From IMG/VR virus record IMGVR_UViG_3300031354_000001, positions 11,120-75,119 of that record: a DNA stretch of 64,000 bases; one strand, given 5' to 3'. The DNA comes from a virus (Duplodnaviria; Heunggongvirae; Uroviricota; Caudoviricetes). Each line of letters begins with the position of its first letter. The first letter of the stretch is position 1. Below are positions 3,989 to 54,337 of this stretch, piece by piece. A program made the position numbers and the translations under genes. Below the pieces are notes generated by a model. The model was not told where the DNA came from. It worked only from the letters and a program-made list of their open reading frames with translations, and searched no databases.

Positions 3989-6180
3989 GAATTCATATCC
4001 TTATTCCATGTTATACTCAATAATGGTATGATATCTCGAAATGATTCTACCTTATTTTTAACAGTATTTTCTACATCATCGACCATTTCTGGTGTTGTTG
4101 GGCACATAACTTCGTCATGAATATTCATTGGCTGAACAAGCCATTTTGCTACGCCTGCTGGCTGCAAATCCCAAATAGCTCGTTGAACTTCCTTTGTTAT
4201 TGTTGCACCTTTACTCTGAATCTGATGATTAGCAGCTGCTCTAAGATTCTTAGCTTGGATGTTAAATGCTGCTGCATATAATGCCGATTGGACCGCACCA
4301 GCGGCGGTCTGCTGTCGGTCTTTACGCATCACTTTGGCTTTAACGTATTTCCATATCTTTGGTGGATCATTAGCCAAATCAAAAAGCATCTTACAGATTT
4401 TATTCTCAATATCGAAGTATCGTTTGAAACCTAAACCATTATCAACCCAGGGCTTAGGATCTTTCCATACTACCGCCGTCCCTATTCCAGCTGGCTGAGT
4501 CATTGAACAATAATCACTCTCAATTGTATCAAGGTATCGTTTGATTCCGGGATACTTTTTCATGAAGCCATTGAAAGCTTTTTCTGCCACTTTGGGATCA
4601 ACATCTAAAGGCTCGACCATTCCTTCCCAACCACCACCATACATAATTCGAAAGAATCCAGTCTTCCCATTTCCATATAGATCGTCTTCAGTTCCCTTTG
4701 TGGCAAGAATCTCTTCATACGTTAGATGAGGATATAATTCACAAGCAAATAGTCCATGTGGCGATTTTCCACTTATAATATCGGCTCTTAGATTTTCATC
4801 ATTATAGACAGACTCTGCAATACTAACCTCGAAGGCATCAAAGTCACCACCGCACAATTTATAACCATCACGCTTTAATTTAAATTTTTGTCTTATTTCT
4901 TTTGTGCCTTTAATTCCTTGTGCATTAAGATCATTGTCACCGGACATTCTCGAACTAAGAGCACCAATAACCCTGAATGAGGCATGGAATTTTCCTGCTT
5001 TTATGAGTTTGTCGAAAAGCTCTATTTCCTTTGTAGCGAAACGTGCATCTAAAACTTCTTGTGCCCGCTTCGCTGCTGGAGAATCCCATTCAATAATTGA
5101 TTTTAAAACGTCTTTTCCTGTTCCATTATTTAAAGCCATGGATTCTGTTTTGTCCATGACTTCAAGCAAATAACCTTTTACCGCGTTTGGTGCTGTCGGC
5201 GTCTTAGCTTTTCTTTTAGCTGCGGCTAAACGCAATTCCTTGATTTTTTCAATATCAATTTCAAATCCACGCCACCGAACCGCTGCCACCATACACGATA
5301 ACTCTGAATCGGTATCGCCAATCTCTGGTTCAAGATGATAATATAACTCGCGTGTATTGATTACATCATCAGCAGCATATTTCCTAGCAAGAGTATTATA
5401 TTCCCAATGGCTAATATGGTGTCGAATTACTTCCGGCCAAGCATTATTCCAGCGCCCAGGCCGTCCTACCGCTAAAGCAAATGGGGCATAACCAAATTCT
5501 TTTGGGTAGAATTTCTTAGATACTTCTACATCCGTGAATTTTAAAATCAAATCATCCTGTTTACCAAGAGCATATTTAGTCAATGTCTTCAAGCCTGTTG
5601 ACGGCCTGAAGTCTAGCTCCAAGTTTTTGAATGCAGGATTAATTGATCCATCAGGAAATTTAATATCACGAATGGCCCATCTTGGTCCACTAGGATCAGA
5701 CCGTTGAGAGAAATAGGCGTCATCGAGATCGGTAAGCTTTTCAAGTTCTTGACGTACCATTGATATTAATTGTGTCGGAATCCTTCTTATTGTTATTGGC
5801 TTCCGACGCATTAGGCATTGATATTTACCTTTACGGGCATGGAGCATTAAGTCACATGCGGCTTTAGGCTTTAGGCAGTAGCCATAATCTCGTGCCTTCT
5901 TTTCTGTTGTCGCTATTAAATCAATATTATCTTCGGGAATGAGATCAGGATCATCAAGCAACATAGAAAATGTTGACCAGATTTTAATAATATGGAACCA
6001 ATCGAATGCGAGATTAAACCCTACTACTTCCTGTGAAGCGATCCATTCTAATAGCTCAACTGATTCTGATATCGGATTCTTCCAGAAGTTATATAATTGG
6101 ACTGAACCATCATCGACAGCATATTGAATAATTACTGGTAGTCCATGGAATCCGCATGTCTCGGTGTCTAAGAAAATCAT
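3973..6180 (-). CDS. family-A DNA polymerase with N-terminal 3'-5' exonuclease
   Basis: N-terminal FLDTETCGF (DnaQ-like Exo I); C-terminal RAAANHQIQSKGA and NIHDEVMC (Pol A motifs B and C); 735 aa. Confidence 0.85.
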   Translation of the reverse strand: MIFLDTETCGFHGLPVIIQYAVDDGSVQLYNFWKNPISESVELLEWIASQEVVGFNLAFDWFHIIKIWSTFSMLLDDPDLIPEDNIDLIATTEKKARDYGYCLKPKAACDLMLHARKGKYQCLMRRKPITIRRIPTQLISMVRQELEKLTDLDDAYFSQRSDPSGPRWAIRDIKFPDGSINPAFKNLELDFRPSTGLKTLTKYALGKQDDLILKFTDVEVSKKFYPKEFGYAPFALAVGRPGRWNNAWPEVIRHHISHWEYNTLARKYAADDVINTRELYYHLEPEIGDTDSELSCMVAAVRWRGFEIDIEKIKELRLAAAKRKAKTPTAPNAVKGYLLEVMDKTESMALNNGTGKDVLKSIIEWDSPAAKRAQEVLDARFATKEIELFDKLIKAGKFHASFRVIGALSSRMSGDNDLNAQGIKGTKEIRQKFKLKRDGYKLCGGDFDAFEVSIAESVYNDENLRADIISGKSPHGLFACELYPHLTYEEILATKGTEDDLYGNGKTGFFRIMYGGGWEGMVEPLDVDPKVAEKAFNGFMKKYPGIKRYLDTIESDYCSMTQPAGIGTAVVWKDPKPWVDNGLGFKRYFDIENKICKMLFDLANDPPKIWKYVKAKVMRKDRQQTAAGAVQSALYAAAFNIQAKNLRAAANHQIQSKGATITKEVQRAIWDLQPAGVAKWLVQPMNIHDEVMCPTTPEMVDDVENTVKNKVESFRDIIPLLSITWNKDMNSWAEK

Positions 6181-7370: not shown

Positions 7371-7603
7371 AATTTATATTTAATATCCAATTTCATTGAG
7401 TCAATAGTTTTAAGTTTTGGCACATAAAAGAATTGAGATAATGGTTGTCCTTTTGCATCATGAATAAAAATAATTCCTTTAGAATCTGCACCTAGATTTA
7501 CACTATGTTTCTTACATAGTTCATTCAAATCTTCTATAAAATCAAATAACCTCCCTATCGGTTCAGTCAATAATGCACGGTCCTCAGGATTATAGCTACT
7601 CAT
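7367..7603 (-). CDS. hypothetical protein
   Basis: 78-aa ORF. Confidence 0.4.
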   Translation of the reverse strand: MSSYNPEDRALLTEPIGRLFDFIEDLNELCKKHSVNLGADSKGIIFIHDAKGQPLSQFFYVPKLKTIDSMKLDIKYKL

Positions 7604-14572: not shown

Positions 14573-14598
14573 GATTATAAAATCCTGATTATAAAATC
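14573..14598. promoter_or_regulatory. two adjacent GATTATAAAATC 12-mers (member of a palindromic motif family)
   Basis: Exact 12-mers at 14573-14584 and 14587-14598. The same or reverse-complement motif occurs at 14311-14322 and 14987-14998. Confidence 0.4.
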
Positions 14599-42063: not shown

Positions 42064-43752
42064 TTATTGTTCCTTTAAATTTGGGTCTTGAGACATTTTC
42101 TTTTCATTTTTACCAGCATCATTATTGACTTTAAAATCATTATTACCACGAGCACCAGAATCATCTGCTTGCTGTGCTGCTTTAATTCGTTCTACCTTAG
42201 CGGCATGGTCAGCAGCAGCTTTTGTTGGTTCATCTTCATTATACCCGCGTGCTTTGGCCGCAGTAATTAATGATAGTATACCATTTTCTATATCGGTCGA
42301 AATTGTATCACTATCACTTGTTACATAATCAGCAGCATCAATTTCACTAAGAATCTCATTCATTTCCTCTGTAGATATATCCATTCCAATTAATGTCGTA
42401 GCAATCTTCTTAGATATTATTTTTTGAAATTTCTTCGAAGGAATCTGCGAGCGTTGCTCTAAAAGCTTCTCAGATTCTGTTAATTTTTGTGTATCAGTCT
42501 TTAAAGAATAGCGTGTAGGATAAGCTATTACAGCTTTGTTTGTTGTAGGAATATATTCTTCGAAGATTGAAGCAATTTGTCGCTCGCCATTCTCTAGAAT
42601 TAGGCCAATGGCACTAAGGCCACTTTCCAATCCACGTTCATCCATTTCCTTGGATTCGGCTGATGTATATTTTGATTTTACATTGGATAATGCAAGATTA
42701 ATTAGTGTTCTAATATCATCTTTTAGATTCTTCTGCTTCTCCATTGAAGCTTGAAGCGGTTCTGGTGAAGGATGAATAAATCCAGGTGGATTAGCACCTT
42801 TAGGGTAAGCCATTCCTACTGTAGCACCTACTTCTAGTGTAGATTCTGATTCATCAGCATTTGCATTCTTTAAATGAGAACCTTTTAATTTGTCTTGCTC
42901 TTTGACGAGGAATGGATAATTAGCTTTTTGAGCATAACTAATATCAGAACTTTCTAAATTCATTAGAGCGATTTGATGATTAGCAATATCCTTTGTTAAT
43001 GGTGAATCAAGTTCAAAAAGTGAGAATGGTATTCTCTTTAGATTAAGGAAATACTCTTCATCACTTTTTTCATTATTTAGATCAATTTGTTCATTGTCAT
43101 TGTTATATAGTTTCACCATTATACCGCCATCGACTTTAATTAAAACACGATAACGATATGATAATTCTGAAGCAAAACCTAAATCATTGGTCTTGTAATA
43201 AGATTCTCGAAGTAATAATTTAGTAAATTCCTTGGTATGCTCCTGATAATTTATTTCCCAATTGAGAATATTCTCAGCAGTGAACGTATAAAGATAAGGT
43301 GTCGCCCAATCAGTATCAGAGATTGTTCTGAAACCATCTAATTTAGGCATATCGACATATACACCGACTTTACCAATGAATAACAATTCTGGAAGAACAA
43401 CCGAGCCAATAAAATGATTCATCGAAGAACCCATTCTATCGACACCACCATTTTCTCCATTAATTACTTTTTGATAATCATCGGAGCCATCCATTCTAGA
43501 TATGTCATGCATTCTTTGATAGATTGCATTCTTAACATCAATAATTGAGCCTTTGGCAAAGGCACATGAAGTTGAATTCTTTTTTCTGATTTCAAAATCT
43601 TCATTTGACTCTCTTGTTGAGAATCGTTGCAAATATTCATCGATGAACTCGTCACCACTATCCATAATGAAACGATATTTTATCCAATTTTCTAATTCTA
43701 AAAGATATTCTGGATGCTGTGATCCTTTAATTGATAATTCGGGTTTTATCAT
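42064..43752 (-). CDS. putative portal protein
   Basis: 562 aa immediately downstream of and overlapping the large terminase gene; acidic C-terminus; position-based call. Confidence 0.45.
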   Translation of the reverse strand: MIKPELSIKGSQHPEYLLELENWIKYRFIMDSGDEFIDEYLQRFSTRESNEDFEIRKKNSTSCAFAKGSIIDVKNAIYQRMHDISRMDGSDDYQKVINGENGGVDRMGSSMNHFIGSVVLPELLFIGKVGVYVDMPKLDGFRTISDTDWATPYLYTFTAENILNWEINYQEHTKEFTKLLLRESYYKTNDLGFASELSYRYRVLIKVDGGIMVKLYNNDNEQIDLNNEKSDEEYFLNLKRIPFSLFELDSPLTKDIANHQIALMNLESSDISYAQKANYPFLVKEQDKLKGSHLKNANADESESTLEVGATVGMAYPKGANPPGFIHPSPEPLQASMEKQKNLKDDIRTLINLALSNVKSKYTSAESKEMDERGLESGLSAIGLILENGERQIASIFEEYIPTTNKAVIAYPTRYSLKTDTQKLTESEKLLEQRSQIPSKKFQKIISKKIATTLIGMDISTEEMNEILSEIDAADYVTSDSDTISTDIENGILSLITAAKARGYNEDEPTKAAADHAAKVERIKAAQQADDSGARGNNDFKVNNDAGKNEKKMSQDPNLKEQ

Positions 43753-45419
43753 AAGAAAACCTTTATGTCTTCATTTGTTGTAAAGCTTGCTGCCAACGGC
43801 AATGCTATTTCATTATAGCAGCGAGCGTCAGCAAAGTGATCTGCACCAACTTTTTGATAATAACCTACAGTGCGACCAGCATTATTTTGCTTGTATCTTC
43901 GAACGAGACCTTTTTGTTGATCGCAGTATTCACTCTGAATATCTTTAGGAATAGCTATGCTATTATTATGAAATCTATTCAAAGCTACATCTAGCCACGC
44001 TGTTTTGTCTACAGATACTTGATGTTTTTCTTCATCAATTGAAATCATTCTTGATGATGAACTATTAGTATAAAAACATAATTTGACATGGCCTTCGAAA
44101 TCCATTGCAAATTCATAAGCCAATCTACGCTCAGGTTGAGCATCTACAACCGCAGTAAGAATATTCCATTGATACATTAATTGTCCGAGTTCACGGAAAT
44201 GCATAACCTTATCGGCATCTAATACATTGCATTCCGCAATCATATTAAGATCATTACCAAGCTTAGGAAACGTCCATTCAGCAATTTCATAGAAGATAAA
44301 TGGTTCACCGACATCAGCACCCATCGTTATCCAACGATTTTGTGGTAATGGGTCCGATTTTGTTCGCGTACTACGTTCTTTTGCTTTTAATAGTTCGCTA
44401 TCAGTTACACGGTGTCCTGGTGGGACATAAGGCAGGCCCATCTTCGAGTTATATAACTCTTGGGCCTCAAGGTTGTCACCCTTCGCTTTTATCGCAGAGA
44501 TAGCGTGTCGCCAAGGCTGTGATTTATTAGCCGAAGAATATAATTGAGGGATATAAAATCCACGTCTCTCGCGATTTGCACTCTCTGTTTTTATCCATTT
44601 GCCAGTTTTTAAAAAATTGATTTTATCTTCATGATGTAATGTCCCTTTGCAGAGCGTACAAATGATATGTGACTTCTTTAGGTCGGGATCATTAACATCA
44701 TCGGCAGTTATAACGAGGCTATCAGGGAATAGTAGTTCTGTATACTTTCCACAGCATGGGCATTTGAAGAAGAAATGGTCTTTTGTACTTTCTTCAAATA
44801 ATTTACCCACACCGAAGTCAGGGGCGGTAGGGGTAGACAACTTGAAGGAACGCCAACTATCTTCGCCAATCTGACCATCAGTACGTGCATCTGCTAATGC
44901 CATATTCTCCATATTCATTTCGTCGTATTCATCATATACCATTAAGGATACTGGTAATGACTTTAGACCGGAACGACTATTACTACCGCGAATCCATAAG
45001 TTTGCTGAGCCTGCTCTTTTGTGGCCTACATTGGAATTAGAAAATAATGTAGATAAATGTGATGACAATCCTACCGCGGCATCGAAACGAGAACTACTGA
45101 AGTCCGAGGCATCTGGTGTCTTTGTTGGTAGAATGTATAGTACATTCTTTCTTTCGATATCGACATAGAAGAATGAAATATTTAAAAGTGCTTCTGTGAA
45201 GCCCATCTGGGCTGCTTTTAAAATCACTACCTCTTGCTCTTTTGCGTCATGGACTTCTTTTAACCACGGATGGTATTTAAAACGCCAAGGGCCTGGCAAT
45301 GGTGGGCCCATTATACGATATTCTTCGGCCCAGCGGGAGGGCGTTTGTACCGCCCTCCTTCTGAGGCCGTTAGCAATCGTGCTTCTTAGAATGTTTTGAA
45401 GCTCATGCACCGTCAGCAA
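43749..45419 (-). CDS. terminase large subunit (GpA-like, with zinc ribbon)
   Basis: Walker A-like LKAAQMGFTE, Walker B LMVYDEYDEM, zinc ribbon CPCCGKY ... CTLCKG, C-terminal nuclease-like region; 556 aa. Confidence 0.7.
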   Translation of the reverse strand: MLTVHELQNILRSTIANGLRRRAVQTPSRWAEEYRIMGPPLPGPWRFKYHPWLKEVHDAKEQEVVILKAAQMGFTEALLNISFFYVDIERKNVLYILPTKTPDASDFSSSRFDAAVGLSSHLSTLFSNSNVGHKRAGSANLWIRGSNSRSGLKSLPVSLMVYDEYDEMNMENMALADARTDGQIGEDSWRSFKLSTPTAPDFGVGKLFEESTKDHFFFKCPCCGKYTELLFPDSLVITADDVNDPDLKKSHIICTLCKGTLHHEDKINFLKTGKWIKTESANRERRGFYIPQLYSSANKSQPWRHAISAIKAKGDNLEAQELYNSKMGLPYVPPGHRVTDSELLKAKERSTRTKSDPLPQNRWITMGADVGEPFIFYEIAEWTFPKLGNDLNMIAECNVLDADKVMHFRELGQLMYQWNILTAVVDAQPERRLAYEFAMDFEGHVKLCFYTNSSSSRMISIDEEKHQVSVDKTAWLDVALNRFHNNSIAIPKDIQSEYCDQQKGLVRRYKQNNAGRTVGYYQKVGADHFADARCYNEIALPLAASFTTNEDIKVFL

Positions 45420-50452: not shown

Positions 50453-50715
50453 TAAATTATTTTAGGATTTTCGGTGGTCCAAAAGTGCGATCAATTATTC
50501 GATGATTTTAAAATCAGAAATATTTTTTCTGAAAATATTTTTTCTGAAAGTCATTGATAAGTAGCTGGACGTTTTTGAAAGTCCTGGGGCGCCACCCAGC
50601 AGAGGGGTGAGGTACTTGGTGCAATAATTAAAACCCTCCCTCCCGTATCGTCGAATCTCTGATTGTAAAATCACTGGACACTTTGGCAATAAGACTCAGT
50701 GATTTTATAATCATT

Positions 50716-50780
50716 GGCCTCTGCCTCTGGCCTCTGGCCTCTGGCGTGAGGCGTGAGGTGTGAGGCGTGAGGCGTGAGGC
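50716..50780. repeat. two back-to-back heptamer microsatellites: (CCTCTGG)~4 then (GGCGTGA)5
   Basis: Direct reading: ggcctctgcctctggcctctggcctct, then ggcgtgaggcgtgaggtgtgaggcgtgaggcgtgagg. Confidence 0.85.
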
Positions 50781-50847
50781 ATAAGATTCTATGGCCTTAG
50801 CTTCGACGCTAACGCGATTACAAGCGGCGGGCCATATGATACGTCAA

Positions 50848-51218
50848 GGGGCGCGGGGAGCGGGGCGCGGGGAGCGGGGAGCGGGGAGCGGGGAGCGGGG
50901 AGCGGGGCGCGGGGAGCGGGGAGCGGGGAGCGGGGCGCGGGGAGCGGGGAGCGGGGAGCGGGGAGCGGGGAGCGGGGAGCGGGGCGCGGGGAGCGGGGCG
51001 CGGGGAGCGGGGCGCGGGGCGCGGGGCGCGGGGAGCGGGGCGCGGGGAGCGGGGCGCGGGGAGCGGGGAGCGGGGAGCGGGGCGCGGGGAGCGGGGAGCG
51101 GGGCGCGGGGAGCGGGGAGCGGGGAGCGGGGCGCGGGGCGCGGGGCGCGGGGAGCGGGGCGCGGGGCGCGGGGAGCGGGGAGCGGGGAGCGGGGAGCGGG
51201 GAGCGGGGAGCGGGGCGG
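50848..51218. repeat. ~53-copy heptamer minisatellite GGGGAGC/GGGGCGC (G-quadruplex-prone)
   Basis: 371 nt of perfect 7-nt periodicity. Only the 5th base varies (A or C), in an irregular order. GGGG runs fall every 7 nt on the plus strand. Confidence 0.9.
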
Positions 51219-51416
51219 TTAGCTATTCAGGAACGCCTCCCACGCCTCCGGCGTACATGGTTCCTTGATTCGGTCGAGCCAATCTAGCGACGTGCTTTGC
51301 ACCTCCCAGCCATCGGCTTGGATTAGCTCCAGGGCAAGGGCGAGGTTGTGAAGGGGGACGTCGAATGTTCGGTTAGTTGTTTCACGGTTCGCGTCAATGG
51401 TCACTCTTGTAATCAT
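51219..51416 (-). CDS. GC-rich island small protein (65 aa from the ATG)
   Basis: ORF MITRVTIDANRETTNRTFDV ...; its ATG overlaps (TGATG) the stop of a 30-aa upstream peptide. High GC, unlike the phage backbone. Confidence 0.4.
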   Translation of the reverse strand: MITRVTIDANRETTNRTFDVPLHNLALALELIQADGWEVQSTSLDWLDRIKEPCTPEAWEAFLNS

Positions 51417-51508
51417 CACAGCACCATCTTTCTCTTAGTGGACAGAAGCGAAACGGCCGCGAACAACGCGATAACAATCATGGTCAGTACATAAGTTTCG
51501 GGTGTCAT
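51416..51508 (-). CDS. 30-aa hydrophobic peptide, translationally coupled
   Basis: Hand-translated MTPETYVLTMIVIALFAAVSLLSTKRKMVL; preceded by strong SD AAGGGAGGTGAT 5 nt upstream; below the ORF-track cutoff. Confidence 0.3.
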   Translation of the reverse strand: MTPETYVLTMIVIALFAAVSLLSTKRKMVL

Positions 51509-51524
51509 AACATCACCTCCCTTT

Positions 51525-51746
51525 CTACTTGAATCTTACCATAGATTCGAGGATTGTCAAGGGAAAATCGGGGACAAGCGTTTGTAGCTCGGATAGCCAG
51601 TAATCCGCTTCAGACAAGTCTCCGTTTCGTCGATAATCGATGATCGTTTCGATGAAATCGGCGACACTACGCGAGCCGGGGCAGTAGCAAAAATCTGCCC
51701 ATTGGCCTAGGCTCGCTTTCAATGCTTTGCGTTCGTGTCGATTCAT
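51525..51746 (-). CDS. GC-rich island small protein
   Basis: 73 aa, MNRHERKALKASLGQWADFCYCPG ...; SD-like GAAAGGGAAAG upstream inside a duplicated 22-nt leader. Confidence 0.4.
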   Translation of the reverse strand: MNRHERKALKASLGQWADFCYCPGSRSVADFIETIIDYRRNGDLSEADYWLSELQTLVPDFPLTILESMVRFK

Positions 51747-51817
51747 GGCTCTTTCCCTTTCTACTTGAATCTTACCACGGGGAAGAAAGAAGTCAAGGAA
51801 AAATCTGGAAAAGATTT

Positions 51818-51858
51818 TCGGAGGTTCGGAGGTTCGGAGGTTCGGAGGTTCGGAGGTT
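51818..51858. repeat. (TTCGGAGG)5 octamer microsatellite
   Basis: cggaggttcggaggttcggaggttcggaggttcggaggtt; lies in the 5' leader of the 51525..51746 gene and overlaps the stop of the 56-aa ORF. Confidence 0.85.
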
Positions 51859-52027
51859 CAAAAAAGAATTACAGGGTGAGTTGGATTGAGAGGATGATTG
51901 TCGCCGGGATATCCGTAATCTGCCGGATACCATGCTGCGATTGCATTGTCCTCCATTACGGTAACTTCTTTATCCAATTGATCTTCTGTCAATCCGTTAA
52001 GTTTGTCTCGCAATTCTCGGTATGTCA
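51857..52027 (-). CDS. 56-aa small protein of the GC-rich island
   Basis: Hand-translated MTYRELRDKLNGLTEDQLDKEVTVMEDNAIAAWYPADYGYPGDNHPLNPTHPVILF, with AAAGG SD-like sequence upstream. Confidence 0.3.
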
Positions 52028-52180
52028 TTGTAGTTACCTTTCAGAGAAACATCACCAAACCAGTAAGGTTCGGCGGTGGGGTAAACTTTCGATTTTTGGT
52101 TTTTTGAGTTTTTCTCTAATTTATAGGTTTTTGATTATATAATCAAACTGGCCAAAACTGACTATATACTCAAACGACAA

Positions 52181-52212
52181 ATAGCCCGCCATGGTTCGCC
52201 ATGACGGGCTAT
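52181..52212 (-). terminator. 14-bp stem hairpin (one mismatch) just downstream of the island ParB-like gene
   Basis: ATAGCCCGCCATGG-TTCG-CCATGACGGGCTAT, flanked by T-runs on both strands. Confidence 0.4.
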
Positions 52213-52228
52213 CTGATTTTTGGCGAGC

Positions 52229-53203
52229 CTAGGCGGCCGCCTCTTCGTTGACGGCGTCGGCCATATCCATGGCCTTGACAACCATGGCATTATAGTCGTC
52301 CTCCCCGAGGTACTCACGGAGAGCCTGGACCACTTTGACGGCCTCTTCGCCTTCGGTGATTTTCCGATCGATCGACGCAAGGTCAGCCGTTCCCTGTTTC
52401 GTCGATGCGAGCAAAGCTTGTTTCAACAGCACACTGTCCATGGCCTGCGCCCGTTCCTTGGCGTCCTTCGCCGAAAGGGCCTTGCCGGCCGTTTCCGGCG
52501 ACTCGGCTTTTTCCTTGGCGTCGTCGAAGATTTTCTTCCACGCCGCTTGGAGCAGTGGCCCGGACCCGTCCGAGTATTCGAGAAACTCCTGATTGTACGA
52601 TTTGTACAACGTGGCGAGATGGGACCAACGCAACGGCGTGGAGTTGGCGTCAGCACAGTATTTCCTCATCTCGTCCTGAACGAAACGGGGGAGCCGGGCC
52701 AAGTTGACCCGCGGCTGGACGAAGCTACGGTTCGGCTTGCCCTTGTTCTTCCCCTTCGTGTGAAAAAGCCCAAGGTGGATTGCGATTTTCTCTTGACTAT
52801 CGCCAAGAGCCTGAACTAGTTGCTGGATTGCCAGGAACATGCTCCATTCGTCGAGCGGTTCGCGGTCCTCGTCGGCCCCATGATCGATTCGACGAAGAAT
52901 CTCTTCCTCTTGCGTCAAGCCCGTGCAAACGATTGCCGGGATTTTTCCGGACGGAAAAAGCTCGGCATAGGCAGTGGGGTCATTGTCCCGAAGCCATTGG
53001 CTCGCGAGCGAACGACGATTCCCGACCAAAACCTTGTACTTGCCGTCATCCTGTTGCGAGACAACGATGGGGTGGTTGCGTTTGAAACCATTTCGGCGGA
53101 TTTTGTCCACCATCTCGGGGATTTTCAGGCTCGGCCCTTGGCGGGGGTTGTCCTCGAAATGAAGGAGATCGATTTCGACGTTTTTGTTCTTTTCGGTACT
53201 CAT
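52229..53203 (-). CDS. ParB-like nuclease-domain protein (copy 3, GC-rich)
   Basis: HFEDNPRQGPSL ... KYKVLVGNRRSLASQWL (ParB N-domain, GNRR variant of GHRR); 324 aa; roughly 58% GC. Confidence 0.6.
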   Translation of the reverse strand: MSTEKNKNVEIDLLHFEDNPRQGPSLKIPEMVDKIRRNGFKRNHPIVVSQQDDGKYKVLVGNRRSLASQWLRDNDPTAYAELFPSGKIPAIVCTGLTQEEEILRRIDHGADEDREPLDEWSMFLAIQQLVQALGDSQEKIAIHLGLFHTKGKNKGKPNRSFVQPRVNLARLPRFVQDEMRKYCADANSTPLRWSHLATLYKSYNQEFLEYSDGSGPLLQAAWKKIFDDAKEKAESPETAGKALSAKDAKERAQAMDSVLLKQALLASTKQGTADLASIDRKITEGEEAVKVVQALREYLGEDDYNAMVVKAMDMADAVNEEAAA

Positions 53204-53257
53204 AGTCAGTTTTCCTCTTGTTACAAAAATAGTAGTGAACGTAAAACGCTAGTAAGT

Positions 53258-53398
53258 CTATAGGCAACTCCTCAATTCTGCTAGGCAACGAACACCGGCG
53301 AGCCGGTATTCAACAGTCAAAAATCCATCCGCTTCGCCGATGATTTTAATATCGGTAGGATTTCCGTTGGTTAGTTTCCTAAGTTTGTCGAGAATCAT
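53258..53398 (-). CDS. 46-aa small ORF
   Basis: Hand-translated MILDKLRKLTNGNPTDIKIIGEADGFLTVEYRLAGVRCLAELRSCL with SD-like GAAAGGGAAAG upstream; speculative. Confidence 0.25.
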   Translation of the reverse strand: MILDKLRKLTNGNPTDIKIIGEADGFLTVEYRLAGVRCLAELRSCL

Positions 53399-53418
53399 TG
53401 TCTTTCCCTTTCGGTAGA

Positions 53419-53703
53419 CTATCTGGCAAATCGTCTCGCAGATTCCATTGCGGCCCGAATGTTTTTGGCACCAACTGGATTAGCAGAATGTATGCTATAA
53501 TTGGGCCATTCGATAATGCCGTTGTAAACAGCATCTTCGATGAAACGTGCTACATCATAACCGGTTTGAGGTGTCCCAAGATCATGGTCGAACGAAATAA
53601 ACTCAACCTTATTGGTAGAGATTAGGTAGCAAGCGTCTCGGGCAGTAGTACAATGTACATGGCCCGGCGGGGCAGGGCGAATATCGTCAAGCCAAATTCT
53701 CAT
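53419..53703 (-). CDS. small REC-like (receiver-fold, cREC-type) domain protein
   Basis: MRIWLDDIRPAP ... ISFDHDLG resembles the M.IWLDDiR.pP.GW ... iSlDHDLG pattern of stand-alone phage receiver-like domains. Weak, memory-based call. Confidence 0.35.
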   Translation of the reverse strand: MRIWLDDIRPAPPGHVHCTTARDACYLISTNKVEFISFDHDLGTPQTGYDVARFIEDAVYNGIIEWPNYSIHSANPVGAKNIRAAMESARRFAR

Positions 53704-53714
53704 GATCTTACCTT

Positions 53715-53746
53715 TCGGTCGGTCGGTCGGTCGGTCGGTCGGTCGG
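53715..53746. repeat. (TCGG)8 tetranucleotide microsatellite
   Basis: tcggtcggtcggtcggtcggtcggtcggtcgg, 11 nt upstream of the start codon of the 53419..53703 gene (in its leader). Confidence 0.85.
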
Positions 53747-53754
53747 TACTTACA

Positions 53755-54006
53755 TTATACCTTGCAGCCCGGCAATGTCAAGACAATTCCGAGAATTTTT
53801 CTCAACTCGTTGTTATCGAAGCTTTTGAGGTGAGCCCCACCACGAAACAGTCTCACTTCCTTTATGTTAAGAATCCCGAACAATGCCACCATTTGCCTCA
53901 ATACTTGTTCGGGCGTACGGCCCTCGAAAGATAAGTCAGTTGATTGCATAACAAAATCTTCGAGATCATCGGACCACGCCCGATACGTTACCTTAGTAGT
54001 GAGCAT
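53755..54006 (-). CDS. GC-rich island small protein
   Basis: 83 aa; first gene of the minus-strand island string. Confidence 0.4.
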   Translation of the reverse strand: MLTTKVTYRAWSDDLEDFVMQSTDLSFEGRTPEQVLRQMVALFGILNIKEVRLFRGGAHLKSFDNNELRKILGIVLTLPGCKV

Positions 54007-54040
54007 AAAATCATTCTCCCAATTGTAATAAAATCAATAT

Positions 54041-54094
54041 CGGCTCGGCTCGGCTCGGCTCGGCTCGGCTCGGCTCGGCTCGGCTCGGCTCGGC
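54041..54094. repeat. (CGGCT)~11 pentanucleotide microsatellite
   Basis: 54 nt of perfect cggct periodicity, 35 nt upstream of the start of the 53755..54006 gene. Confidence 0.85.
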
Positions 54095-54262
54095 ATTACT
54101 CTATTATACCATGGCGATTGGCCATGTCAAGAGGGAAAACAAAAATTATTTTGCCGATGATATTGATTTTATTGCATACCTAAGAAAATGATTTTAGTAT
54201 CGAGGGTTATAACGATTATAATGATTCTAATGATTCTAATAATCGCGTGTACAGAAGATGAT

Positions 54263-54337
54263 ATGTCGCCTACCGCGCCTATACTTACGCTTAAAAGTAC
54301 ATCGCCTACCGCAACCACACTCACGCTTAAAAGTGCA
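54263..54337. repeat. two tandem ~36-nt degenerate direct repeats
   Basis: tcgcctaccgcGCCtaTaCTtacgcttaaaagt / tcgcctaccgcAACcaCaCTCacgcttaaaagt. Confidence 0.5.

Follow-up and report, generated by a model that had tools for sequence, protein, structure and literature searches.

Perfect short tandem arrays around a ParB/KorB/Noc-fold gene in an uncultivated tailed phage and its relatives

The stretch of DNA considered here, referred to below as the window, comprises 64,000 nucleotides (nt) of a tailed phage (positions 11,120 to 75,119 of the IMG/VR record IMGVR_UViG_3300031354_000001; Caudoviricetes), and the elements in question are three short tandem repeats, tracts A, B, and C, that lie among small genes near a gene for a ParB-like protein of 324 amino acids (aa) (Table 1). 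PHROG matches to portal, major head protein, DNA polymerase, helicase, and primase identify the window as a tailed-phage genome; the large terminase is encoded at 43749..45419, the tape measure protein comprises 1329 aa, and the minus strand carries nearly every gene between 20 and 64 kb. The repeats fall in an island at approximately 50.7–54.5 kb, in which the guanine-plus-cytosine (GC) content is 45–60% (86% in one array) as compared with 30–40% in the flanks. All three tracts were called by Tandem Repeats Finder as 100% matches with no indels. A scan for perfect repeats (unit of 4–12 nt, at least three copies, at least 24 nt) identified 11 arrays in the window, every one within 50867–54094; when the sequence was dinucleotide-shuffled, 200 times for the island and 30 times for the window, the same scan identified none. 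Tracts A, B, and C are far beyond chance, and the three repeats listed in an initial annotation of this DNA are real, each being perfect and in its place. Approximately 5.7 kb of other non-coding sequence in the window contains no perfect array, which indicates that the hot spot is regional.

Repeat tracts and promoters of the island

Tracts A and B lie directly behind promoters P1 and P2, which are the sole 12/12 matches to the sigma-70 consensus on both strands of the window and are paralogues (77% identity over 30 nt). Tract A starts 8 nt past the −10 element of P1, with 33 nt between its end and the ATG of the 83-aa gene; tract B starts 6 nt past the −10 element of P2 and leaves only 11 nt to the start codon of the cREC gene, so that it makes up nearly the entire leader. 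Because they begin 6–8 nt after a −10 element, that is, at the predicted transcription start or a few nucleotides from it, both are predicted to form the 5′ ends of their transcripts, and both end upstream of Shine-Dalgarno sequences. Tract C begins at the TGA that terminates the 56-aa gene; 20 nt separate its other end from the −35 element of the predicted promoter P3, which lies downstream, and 70 nt separate it from the start codon of the gene at 51525..51746. Judged from this position, tract C is a 3′/inter-cistronic or promoter-upstream element, which would belong to a leader only if transcription reads through. No tract lies within a −35/−10 spacer or a main open reading frame (ORF). The placement of all three tracts in 5′ leaders by the initial annotation therefore agrees with the predicted leader ends for A and B and, if the predicted P3 is used, fails for C. 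Its distance of 11 nt between tract B and the REC-like gene was exact, as was the REC-like label itself; tract A was correctly placed upstream of 53755..54006 and credited with approximately 11 copies, at a distance of 35 nt that proved to be 33 nt.

An identical block of 24 nt (TGGTAAGATTCAAGTAGAAAGGGA on the minus strand, containing the −10 element, leader, and ribosome-binding site) occurs at 51518–51541 in P4 and at 51754–51777 in P3, and this module precedes two consecutive small genes. P1 and tract A are bracketed by the 18-nt arms of an inverted repeat, the upstream one of which, GATATTGATTTTATTGCA, is a degenerate copy of a genome-wide palindrome (TGATTTTAWWATCA). The three tract regions fold no better than shuffles (z = +0.36, +0.56, and +2.0; rounded, +0.4, +0.6, and +2.0), which implies that the tracts lack structure and a partner to pair with. 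Their coding-strand units (CCGA, GCCGA, and CCTCCGAA) contain a common CCGA core.

The closest relative, locus L015 (JGI metagenome 3300031276), encodes a ParB-like protein that is 87% identical to that of the window and an 83-aa homologue that is 59% identical, the latter indicating that the 83-aa ORF is a real gene. L015 keeps both P1 and P2. In the alignment, the leader behind its P1 is unique sequence ending in GACCGAGACCGA at the position of the pure (GCCGA)11 of the window, and behind its P2 a long leader carries a perfect (GACCGA)7.5 approximately 120 nt downstream, where the window has (CCGA)8.2. Since L015 is without the cREC and 46-aa genes, P2 would drive the ParB-like gene directly in this relative. 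The CCGA-core repeat is thus an old feature of this promoter module; its units now measure 6, 5, or 4 nt, and its position and number of copies have changed as well, yet it has stayed perfect. Tracts A and B descend from a CCGA-core proto-repeat that is also found behind the homologous promoters of L015. The proposal of the initial annotation that each gene carries a private repeat does not survive this comparison, and the tracts did not arise independently: all three tracts share the CCGA core, tracts A and B lie behind paralogous promoters, and L015 has GACCGA behind the same two promoters.

An exact look-up of the ParB-like protein returned a single match, a 1.9-kb contig (L014) of an independent Logan assembly (run SRR8557488) that starts within (CCGA)n and stops within (CCTCCGAA)n. 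This k = 31 assembly breaks at tracts B and C; both tracts are therefore present in the reads, and the contig carries no information on their length. No nucleotide match to the island or to 20 kb of backbone was found among 50,697 GenBank phage records, an exact-word look-up in viral contigs gave zero matches to the island, and neither the 83-aa nor the 94-aa protein was on record in an exact-protein look-up. A search of the window against Rfam identified tRNA-Asn alone and no other known RNA family.

Arrays around the ParB-like gene in related phages

For the 324-aa ParB-like protein, 67 homologues were found. The top Foldseek matches of its AlphaFold2 model (predicted local distance difference test, pLDDT, 89.7) are KorB (8qa9), Noc (7nfu), and ParB (7bnk/6sdk), with E values of ~1e-6 over 230–246 columns that span the N-terminal as well as the DNA-binding (helix-turn-helix) domain. 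According to this model, the protein is a genuine ParB/KorB/Noc fold. Its match to Pfam ParB_N is sub-threshold (19 bits vs. a cut-off of 26.3), and a PDB sequence-profile search found nothing. The residues G61 N62 R63 R64, which constitute an arginine-rich GxRR nucleotide-binding motif, are invariant in 34 homologues.

Scans with a ParB profile yielded 78 metagenomic and 5 viral loci, largely from sediment assemblies, and zero matches in a prophage and host search of 185,579 species genomes. In 83 distinct loci, 115 perfect arrays were found, none of them counted within the 74 kb that the ParB genes make up. The density is 1.2 arrays per kb in the first 500 nt downstream of ParB and 0.5–0.6 per kb out to 2 kb; an array is found within 1 kb downstream in 29 of the 49 eligible loci (in 8, the contig ends inside the array) and within 1 kb upstream in merely 9 of 60. 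The tracts of the window are local cases of a clade-wide trait, namely a hot spot of perfect arrays with 4–8 nt units around the gene for the ParB/KorB/Noc-fold protein. The gene order common to the related phages starts with the ParB-like gene and, after a gap, continues with a 175-aa gene and several others up to a GpA-type terminase. The GC content of the ParB-like gene exceeds that of its flanking genes by 5–20 points in nearly all long relatives (L017, L019, L043, L078, L081, L083, and L102). The conserved GC step implies that the composition of the island is a family trait rather than a recent import, and the idea of a recently acquired GC-rich island was rejected on the grounds of this step and the conserved order of ParB, 175-aa, and terminase genes.

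The arrays differ between close relatives. In a sub-clade of four loci (L023, L028, L030, and L031), a conserved terminator hairpin 3′ of ParB is followed by several arrays in series. Behind this hairpin, (TGCC) is present in 14, 14, and 22 copies in L023, L028, and L030, respectively, and in at least 3 in L031, where the contig ends; then comes (GCCCTC)16, (AGCCCC)4, or (GCCCTA) in at least 18 copies, and farther on conserved unique sequence is followed by (AACCAAG)17 or approximately 8 imperfect copies of (AACCCAG). Between L028 and L031, which are 95% identical, a (GAACCTT) array differs by approximately one unit. At 2825–2964 of L030, an in-frame (TGATGC)4.5 plus (GCTGAC)19.7 within the ParB C-terminus encodes an (AD)n stretch, and the latter array argues for a general tendency to slippage. 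Hypermutability of the arrays over evolutionary time is supported by these sequence comparisons. A difference in (GCCTACG) between L019 (8.9 copies) and L020 (at least 14) was discarded, since L019 has a scaffold gap there and L020 ends inside the array.

Contig ends inside arrays are a systematic assembly break, and could also be a physical genome end. Contigs begin inside a perfect array at L005 (1–123), L006 (1–94), and L007 (1–57), and the 3′ ends of L025, L026, L030, L033, L034, L047, and L050 also lie inside one. Array-terminated metagenomic contigs reach 93 kb, and their breaks are found beside the ParB-like gene or upstream of the terminase at a distance of a few kb; of the terminase-anchored contigs, three end in arrays.

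Downstream of the ParB-like gene, the window continues with small genes as far as a large heptamer array (Table 1). The RNA of this 368-nt array is C-rich and unstructured (z = −0.6), and its copy number is not reliable from a short-read assembly, as the array exceeds a typical short read. On the plus strand, it reads as approximately 52 copies of GGGGAGC/GGGGCGC (86% GC), a pattern of four G and three other bases that corresponds to a G-quadruplex motif. It also yields a spurious ORF of 143 aa (50791..51222, plus strand), and an 11/12 promoter on the plus strand (50683–50711) is directed into it. A pair of adjacent arrays next to it, whose units are complementary in part, can pair in register, as can adjacent arrays at 7450–7560 of L019, where GAACCAGGAAC..CTCGCTCACGCC pairs with GGCGTGAGCGAG..GTTCCTGGTTC; these in-register pairs in the window and L019 suggest that arrays can grow on hairpin arms.

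Two other repeated elements occur in the window. The 14-bp palindrome TGATTTTAWWATCA (TGATTTTAAAATCA) has perfect copies at 14586, 14986, 50394, 50503, and 50700, and with at most one mismatch it gave 66 strand-matches in the whole window, or approximately 45 sites vs. 0.77 expected. Its sites are often 10–30 nt upstream of start codons, and the motif is also present in L015 and L023; by its distribution, it is a candidate operator of a global regulator, possibly the KorB/Noc-like protein. In addition, imperfect arrays with a 9-nt period and an ACAATCC/ATAATCC-type core are found at 54207–54337 of the window (TTATAATGA, 3.8 copies) and at 347–675 of L015, and in many loci such 9-mer arrays are located 1–3.5 kb upstream of ParB, with a 36-nt unit in 2–3 copies besides. 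Their core is conserved family-wide, in contrast to the perfect arrays, and they are probably protein-binding iterons and perhaps an origin.

Table 1. Features of the island and its surroundings in the window (coordinates in nt of the window).
Feature	Coordinates	Strand	Description
Upstream inverted-repeat arm	54159..54176	.	18 nt, GATATTGATTTTATTGCA; with the other arm brackets P1 and tract A
Promoter P1	54103..54130	-	TTGACA-16-TATAAT, 12/12, extended -10 TG; conserved in L015
Possible leaderless upstream ORF	54034..54096	-	MPSRAEPSRAEPSRAEPSRY*; hypothetical; ATG (54096-54094) 7 nt after P1 -10; reads through tract A
Tract A	54040..54094	-	(GCCGA)11 on coding strand, (TCGGC)11.0 on plus strand
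Downstream inverted-repeat arm	54024..54041	.	18 nt; abuts tract A within the leader
83-aa gene	53755..54006	-	No assigned function; homologue in L015 59% identical
Promoter P2	53754..53781	-	TTGACA-16-TATAAT, 12/12; conserved in L015; overlaps stop codon of 83-aa gene
Tract B	53715..53747	-	(CCGA)8.2 on coding strand, TCGG x8.2 on plus strand
94-aa cREC_REC gene	53419..53703	-	Pfam cREC_REC (cyclic-phosphate processing receiver domain), E = 8e-25; absent from L015
46-aa ORF	53258..53398	-	Between cREC and ParB-like genes; no family match; absent from L015
324-aa ParB-like gene	52229..53203	-	ParB/KorB/Noc fold (model); invariant GNRR motif
Intrinsic terminator	52167..52215	-	3′ of ParB-like gene; 17-bp stem then UUUGUCGUUUG; z = -6.9
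56-aa gene	51858..52028	-	phrog_1057, no assigned function; TGA stop opens tract C
Tract C	51817..51859	-	(GAACCTCC)5.4 on coding strand, equivalent to (CCTCCGAA)n; TTCGGAGG x5.4 on plus strand
Promoter P3 (predicted)	51769..51796	-	TTGACT-16-TAAGAT, extended -10 TG
73-aa gene	51525..51746	-	No family match
Promoter P4	51533..51560	-	TTGACA-16-TAAGAT
30-aa hydrophobic-peptide ORF	51416..51508	-	MTPETYVLTMIVIALFAAVSLLSTKRKMVL; GGAGG ribosome-binding site, behind P4
66-aa ORF	51219..51419	-	Start overlapped by stop codon of 30-aa ORF; last coding unit before large array
Large heptamer array	50848..51215	-	(GCTCCCC/GCGCCCC) x ~52; starts 3 nt after stop of 66-aa ORF
Adjacent arrays	50715..50780	-	(TCACGCC)5.4 + (GAGGCCA)4.6; pair in register, GCCUC with GAGGC, z = -3.4

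Possible origins and roles of the arrays

The explanation that we favor, with a confidence that is roughly even, is that the tracts are slippage-driven, fast-turnover microsatellites in transcribed non-coding DNA of the early/ParB-like region of a sediment phage, with a graded effect at most. Slippage would generate the arrays, whose copy number and unit differ between relatives. A change in the copy number of tract A or B would alter merely the length and composition of a leader, and any effect on expression would be graded rather than ON/OFF, the leader acting as a rheostat or as an unstructured standby segment for ribosomes, because both tracts lie after the −10 element and before the ribosome-binding site and are unstructured. 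Tract C and the large downstream arrays would constitute a second class, which occupies the DNA separating early from packaging genes and whose sense strand is rich in C and poor in G.

Several regularities, however, would not be expected of neutral slippage alone and weigh against this explanation. Period 7 is dominant (36 of 89 units), and on the sense strand C exceeds G in the downstream arrays by 41 to 8 (p = 2e-6) while the surroundings are balanced, although the loci behind this and the core and unit-sharing statistics below are phylogenetically non-independent. The composition of the downstream arrays is A.21, C.44, G.21, and T.15, against a background of.27,.23,.24, and.26; 18 units contain a CCC run and a single one a GGG run, and the upstream arrays have no C>G bias (5 vs. 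8). When the loci were collapsed to 63 ParB clusters and compared with a composition-matched null, the cyclic 5-mer GAACC was found in 12 units, as compared with 2 for its complement, from 8 clusters, and CCCTG (8 vs. 0) and CAAGA (7 vs. 0) were similarly strand-specific, the null maximum for any 5-mer averaging 5.1. Tract C belongs to the GAACC-core class found downstream of ParB. Seven whole units are common to more than one cluster, vs. 3.2 expected, including TCACGCC of the window, which is shared with the distant relative L041. Moreover, some adjacent arrays are mutually complementary, and two loci have arrays directly before the ParB-like start codon, namely (GTTTCACC)10.5 at 343–426 of L037, 72 nt upstream, and (GTTTCAC)4 at 4933–4960 of L051, 20 nt upstream, GTTTCAC being the half-site of the canonical parS. 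Strand bias, period, recurrent cores, complementarity, and parS arrays together suggest that at least some of the arrays are under selection.

The initial annotation regarded the tracts as the hallmark of phase-variable expression, in which slippage in each tract would stochastically switch the downstream gene. It was right in that the tracts are perfect, beyond chance, and beside small genes, and in that copy number and unit vary between relatives, such variability being a prerequisite for contingency behavior. Two routes to a switch can be conceived for tract A. The possible leaderless upstream ORF reads through the tract, and its termination point depends on the copy number modulo 3, each 5-nt slip changing the frame; the three predicted outcomes are a stop ahead of the Shine-Dalgarno sequence, as at present, a stop at a TGA 4 nt short of the main ATG, which would allow coupling, and an out-of-frame passage across the main start, which would cause interference. 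Alternatively, if a repressor binds both 18-nt arms, the 5-bp unit would shift their phasing by approximately half a turn. Precedents exist in the operator-flanked distal promoter tract of nadA (PMC2791445) and the transcribed heptamer in the 5′ untranslated region (5′UTR) of hmw1A (PMC12721329), and contingency loci have lately been reported in phages (bioRxiv 10.1101/2025.10.21.683753). However, the upstream ORF presupposes leaderless initiation and a predicted start and is not conserved in L015, tract B is without such an ORF, and tract C is outside the leader. None of the tracts occupies a classical ON/OFF position, and an hmw-like leader hairpin was rejected, since the leaders fold no better than shuffles. 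A promoter-then-tract layout is not recurrent in the family either, being found in 3 of 80 array clusters vs. 1.3 expected, with two of the three in the window itself, and a family-wide cassette of this kind was therefore rejected. The reported phage loci, furthermore, are homopolymers that are mostly inside ORFs. Among relatives, the arrays differ in copy number and unit over evolutionary time; contigs of identical sequence from different runs (L017 and L018) carry identical short arrays, which is at odds with contingency. As far as the sequences allow a judgment, binary phase variation is not supported, and true contingency seems unlikely.

Another account would be selection of the arrays as RNA elements, long, unstructured, C-rich, and G-poor, in which composition would matter and exact sequence would not: they would serve as Rho-loading (rut) or termination zones between the early and packaging operons or, at a 5′ end, as leaders that bind S1 or offer the ribosome an unstructured standby site. 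Tandem expansion would be the quickest way for an AT-rich phage to make such a stretch. A typical rut site is approximately 70–80 nt. The C>G bias of the downstream arrays speaks for this account, as do the array starts directly after stop codons or terminator hairpins and the lack of structure in the (GCUCCCC)52 RNA and around tract C. C>G-biased, unstructured RNA of at least the rut length would be provided by (GCUCCCC)52 and most downstream arrays. Rut sites are described as loosely defined and C>G-biased (PMC13650167), and TAACTGA heptamers near start codons of marine Beggiatoaceae have been proposed as sites of a translational regulator (PMC4679880). On the other hand, tract A has as much C as G, and tracts B (33 nt) and C (43 nt, C-rich) are shorter than a typical rut site. 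The bias is absent from the upstream arrays, the arrays on three contigs anchored by the large terminase (TerL) are G-rich on the sense strand, arrays behind a strong intrinsic terminator would seldom be transcribed, and the idea presupposes a host Rho. Taken together, these points make a selected RNA element rather improbable.

The tight clustering of the arrays around a gene for a ParB/KorB/Noc-fold protein, the unit cores common to relatives, and the arrays upstream of the ParB start in L037 and L051 could also be explained if the arrays were binding sites (iterons, centromere-like sites, or operators) for this protein or for nearby small proteins. One protein cannot recognize all of the six unrelated units that lie within 3.4 kb of the window (CCGA, GCCGA, GAACCTCC, GCTCCCC, TCACGCC, and GAGGCCA), though, and a spacing of 4–8 bp does not hold sites on one helix face. 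The ParB family binds palindromes of 13–16 bp, for which TGATTTTAWWATCA is the better candidate, and GTTTCAC occurs in the window at chance frequency only; we consider such binding sites very unlikely. That the tracts or their lengths are artefacts of short-read assembly is more improbable still, to the point of being negligible: L014 starts and ends in tracts, at least eight contigs end inside arrays, L019 has a scaffold gap inside one, and the 368-nt array is longer than a typical short read, but tracts A, B, and C (33–55 nt) are shorter than a read, tracts B and C recur in the independent Logan assembly, and similar arrays turn up in dozens of assemblies, which come from separate projects and were made with different assemblers. 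Three further candidates were set aside, namely a CRISPR-like array (the units are 4–8 nt with no spacers), TAACTGA-type host repeats (absent from the window), and Chi-like arrays that shield a genome end, as suggested by the G-rich plus strand with AGCGG inside GGGGAGC (a host has a single Chi, and the phage six units).

Slippage-driven microsatellites thus remain our preferred explanation of the tracts. It is also tempting to speculate, as a bold and unlikely extension, that selection maintains, throughout a clade of sediment phages, a hypervariable zone of perfect arrays around an orphan ParB/KorB-like gene, in which units are free within strand-specific themes (GAACC, CCCTG, CAAGA, and CCGA), composition and orientation are constrained, and a fast-slipping copy number sets the early-gene output through the leader arrays and, through the C-rich arrays downstream of ParB, the strength of the transcription barrier between early and packaging genes. 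If true, this would be a phage contingency region of multi-nucleotide non-coding repeats, a kind not yet described for phages.

Relation to known repeat systems

The clade of uncultivated phages described here has a positionally conserved, strand-biased array hot spot beside a ParB/KorB-like gene, and its leader arrays sit behind the strongest host-type promoters of the genome. It offers a compact system in which to ask whether non-coding microsatellites tune viral early-gene expression or termination, and why some mobile elements make perfect repeats at all. In practical terms, metagenomic assembly of these phages systematically breaks at the arrays, immediately upstream of the packaging module.

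Among bacterial contingency loci, nadA of N. meningitidis has a (TAAA)n tract at a distal promoter flanked by NadR operators (PMC2791445), and in hmw1A of H. influenzae a transcribed (ATCTTTC)n tract in the 5′UTR controls expression and requires a hairpin (PMC12721329). As in these systems, the perfect short-unit tracts of the window are located in non-coding DNA beside a gene; the hmw tract is transcribed in a leader, as is predicted for tracts A and B, and the nadA operators may be compared with the 18-nt arms around tract A. By contrast, the window tracts are without the hairpin partner of hmw, and they belong to small early phage genes with no assigned function rather than to surface antigens of a host-adapted pathogen. 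The phage contingency loci reported so far, homopolymers of 6 bp or more that mostly lie inside ORFs, act by frameshift, and bet-hedging has been proposed for them (bioRxiv 10.1101/2025.10.21.683753). They resemble the present tracts as slippage-prone phage repeats, and differ in that the latter have units of 4–8 nt and are non-coding.

Bacterial heptamers are represented by the intergenic G-quadruplex repeats GGGNATC and GGGGA(C/T)T of Xanthomonas and Nostoc (PMC4692102) and by the TAACTGA repeats that lie a few nt upstream of start codons in marine Beggiatoaceae (PMC4679880). They share with the present arrays a period of 7, an intergenic position no more than approximately 50 bp from a start or stop codon, variable copy numbers, and a strand preference with respect to the adjacent ORF, and the placement of TAACTGA at start codons resembles that of tract B and the array of L051. 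However, these bacterial repeats consist of one conserved unit genome-wide, whereas many units are packed in one region of the phage.

Closest in kind are the perfect tandem repeats of Borg extrachromosomal elements (PMC9879509), which are likewise head-to-tail, free of single-nucleotide polymorphisms, intergenic, and subject to fast turnover, occur on a mobile element rather than a cellular chromosome, and cause assemblers to fail. Borg repeats have at least 3 perfect units and at least 50 nt, a size reached by tract A (55 nt) and many arrays of the family, tracts B (33 nt) and C (43 nt) being shorter. Rapid evolution is shared, as indicated by the turnover in the sub-clade, and so are genic repeats with units divisible by three, as in the (GCTGAC)19.7 of the L030 ParB, which encodes the (AD)n stretch. 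On the other hand, Borg repeats are A-enriched and genome-wide, with independent units that are nearly all unique, whereas the present arrays are confined to a region of a few kb, are C-enriched downstream of ParB (44% C and 21% A), have shorter units (mostly 4–8 nt, with a peak at 7), and share cores and units with distant relatives. Perfect multi-nucleotide arrays are otherwise a hallmark of Borg elements and a few bacterial lineages.

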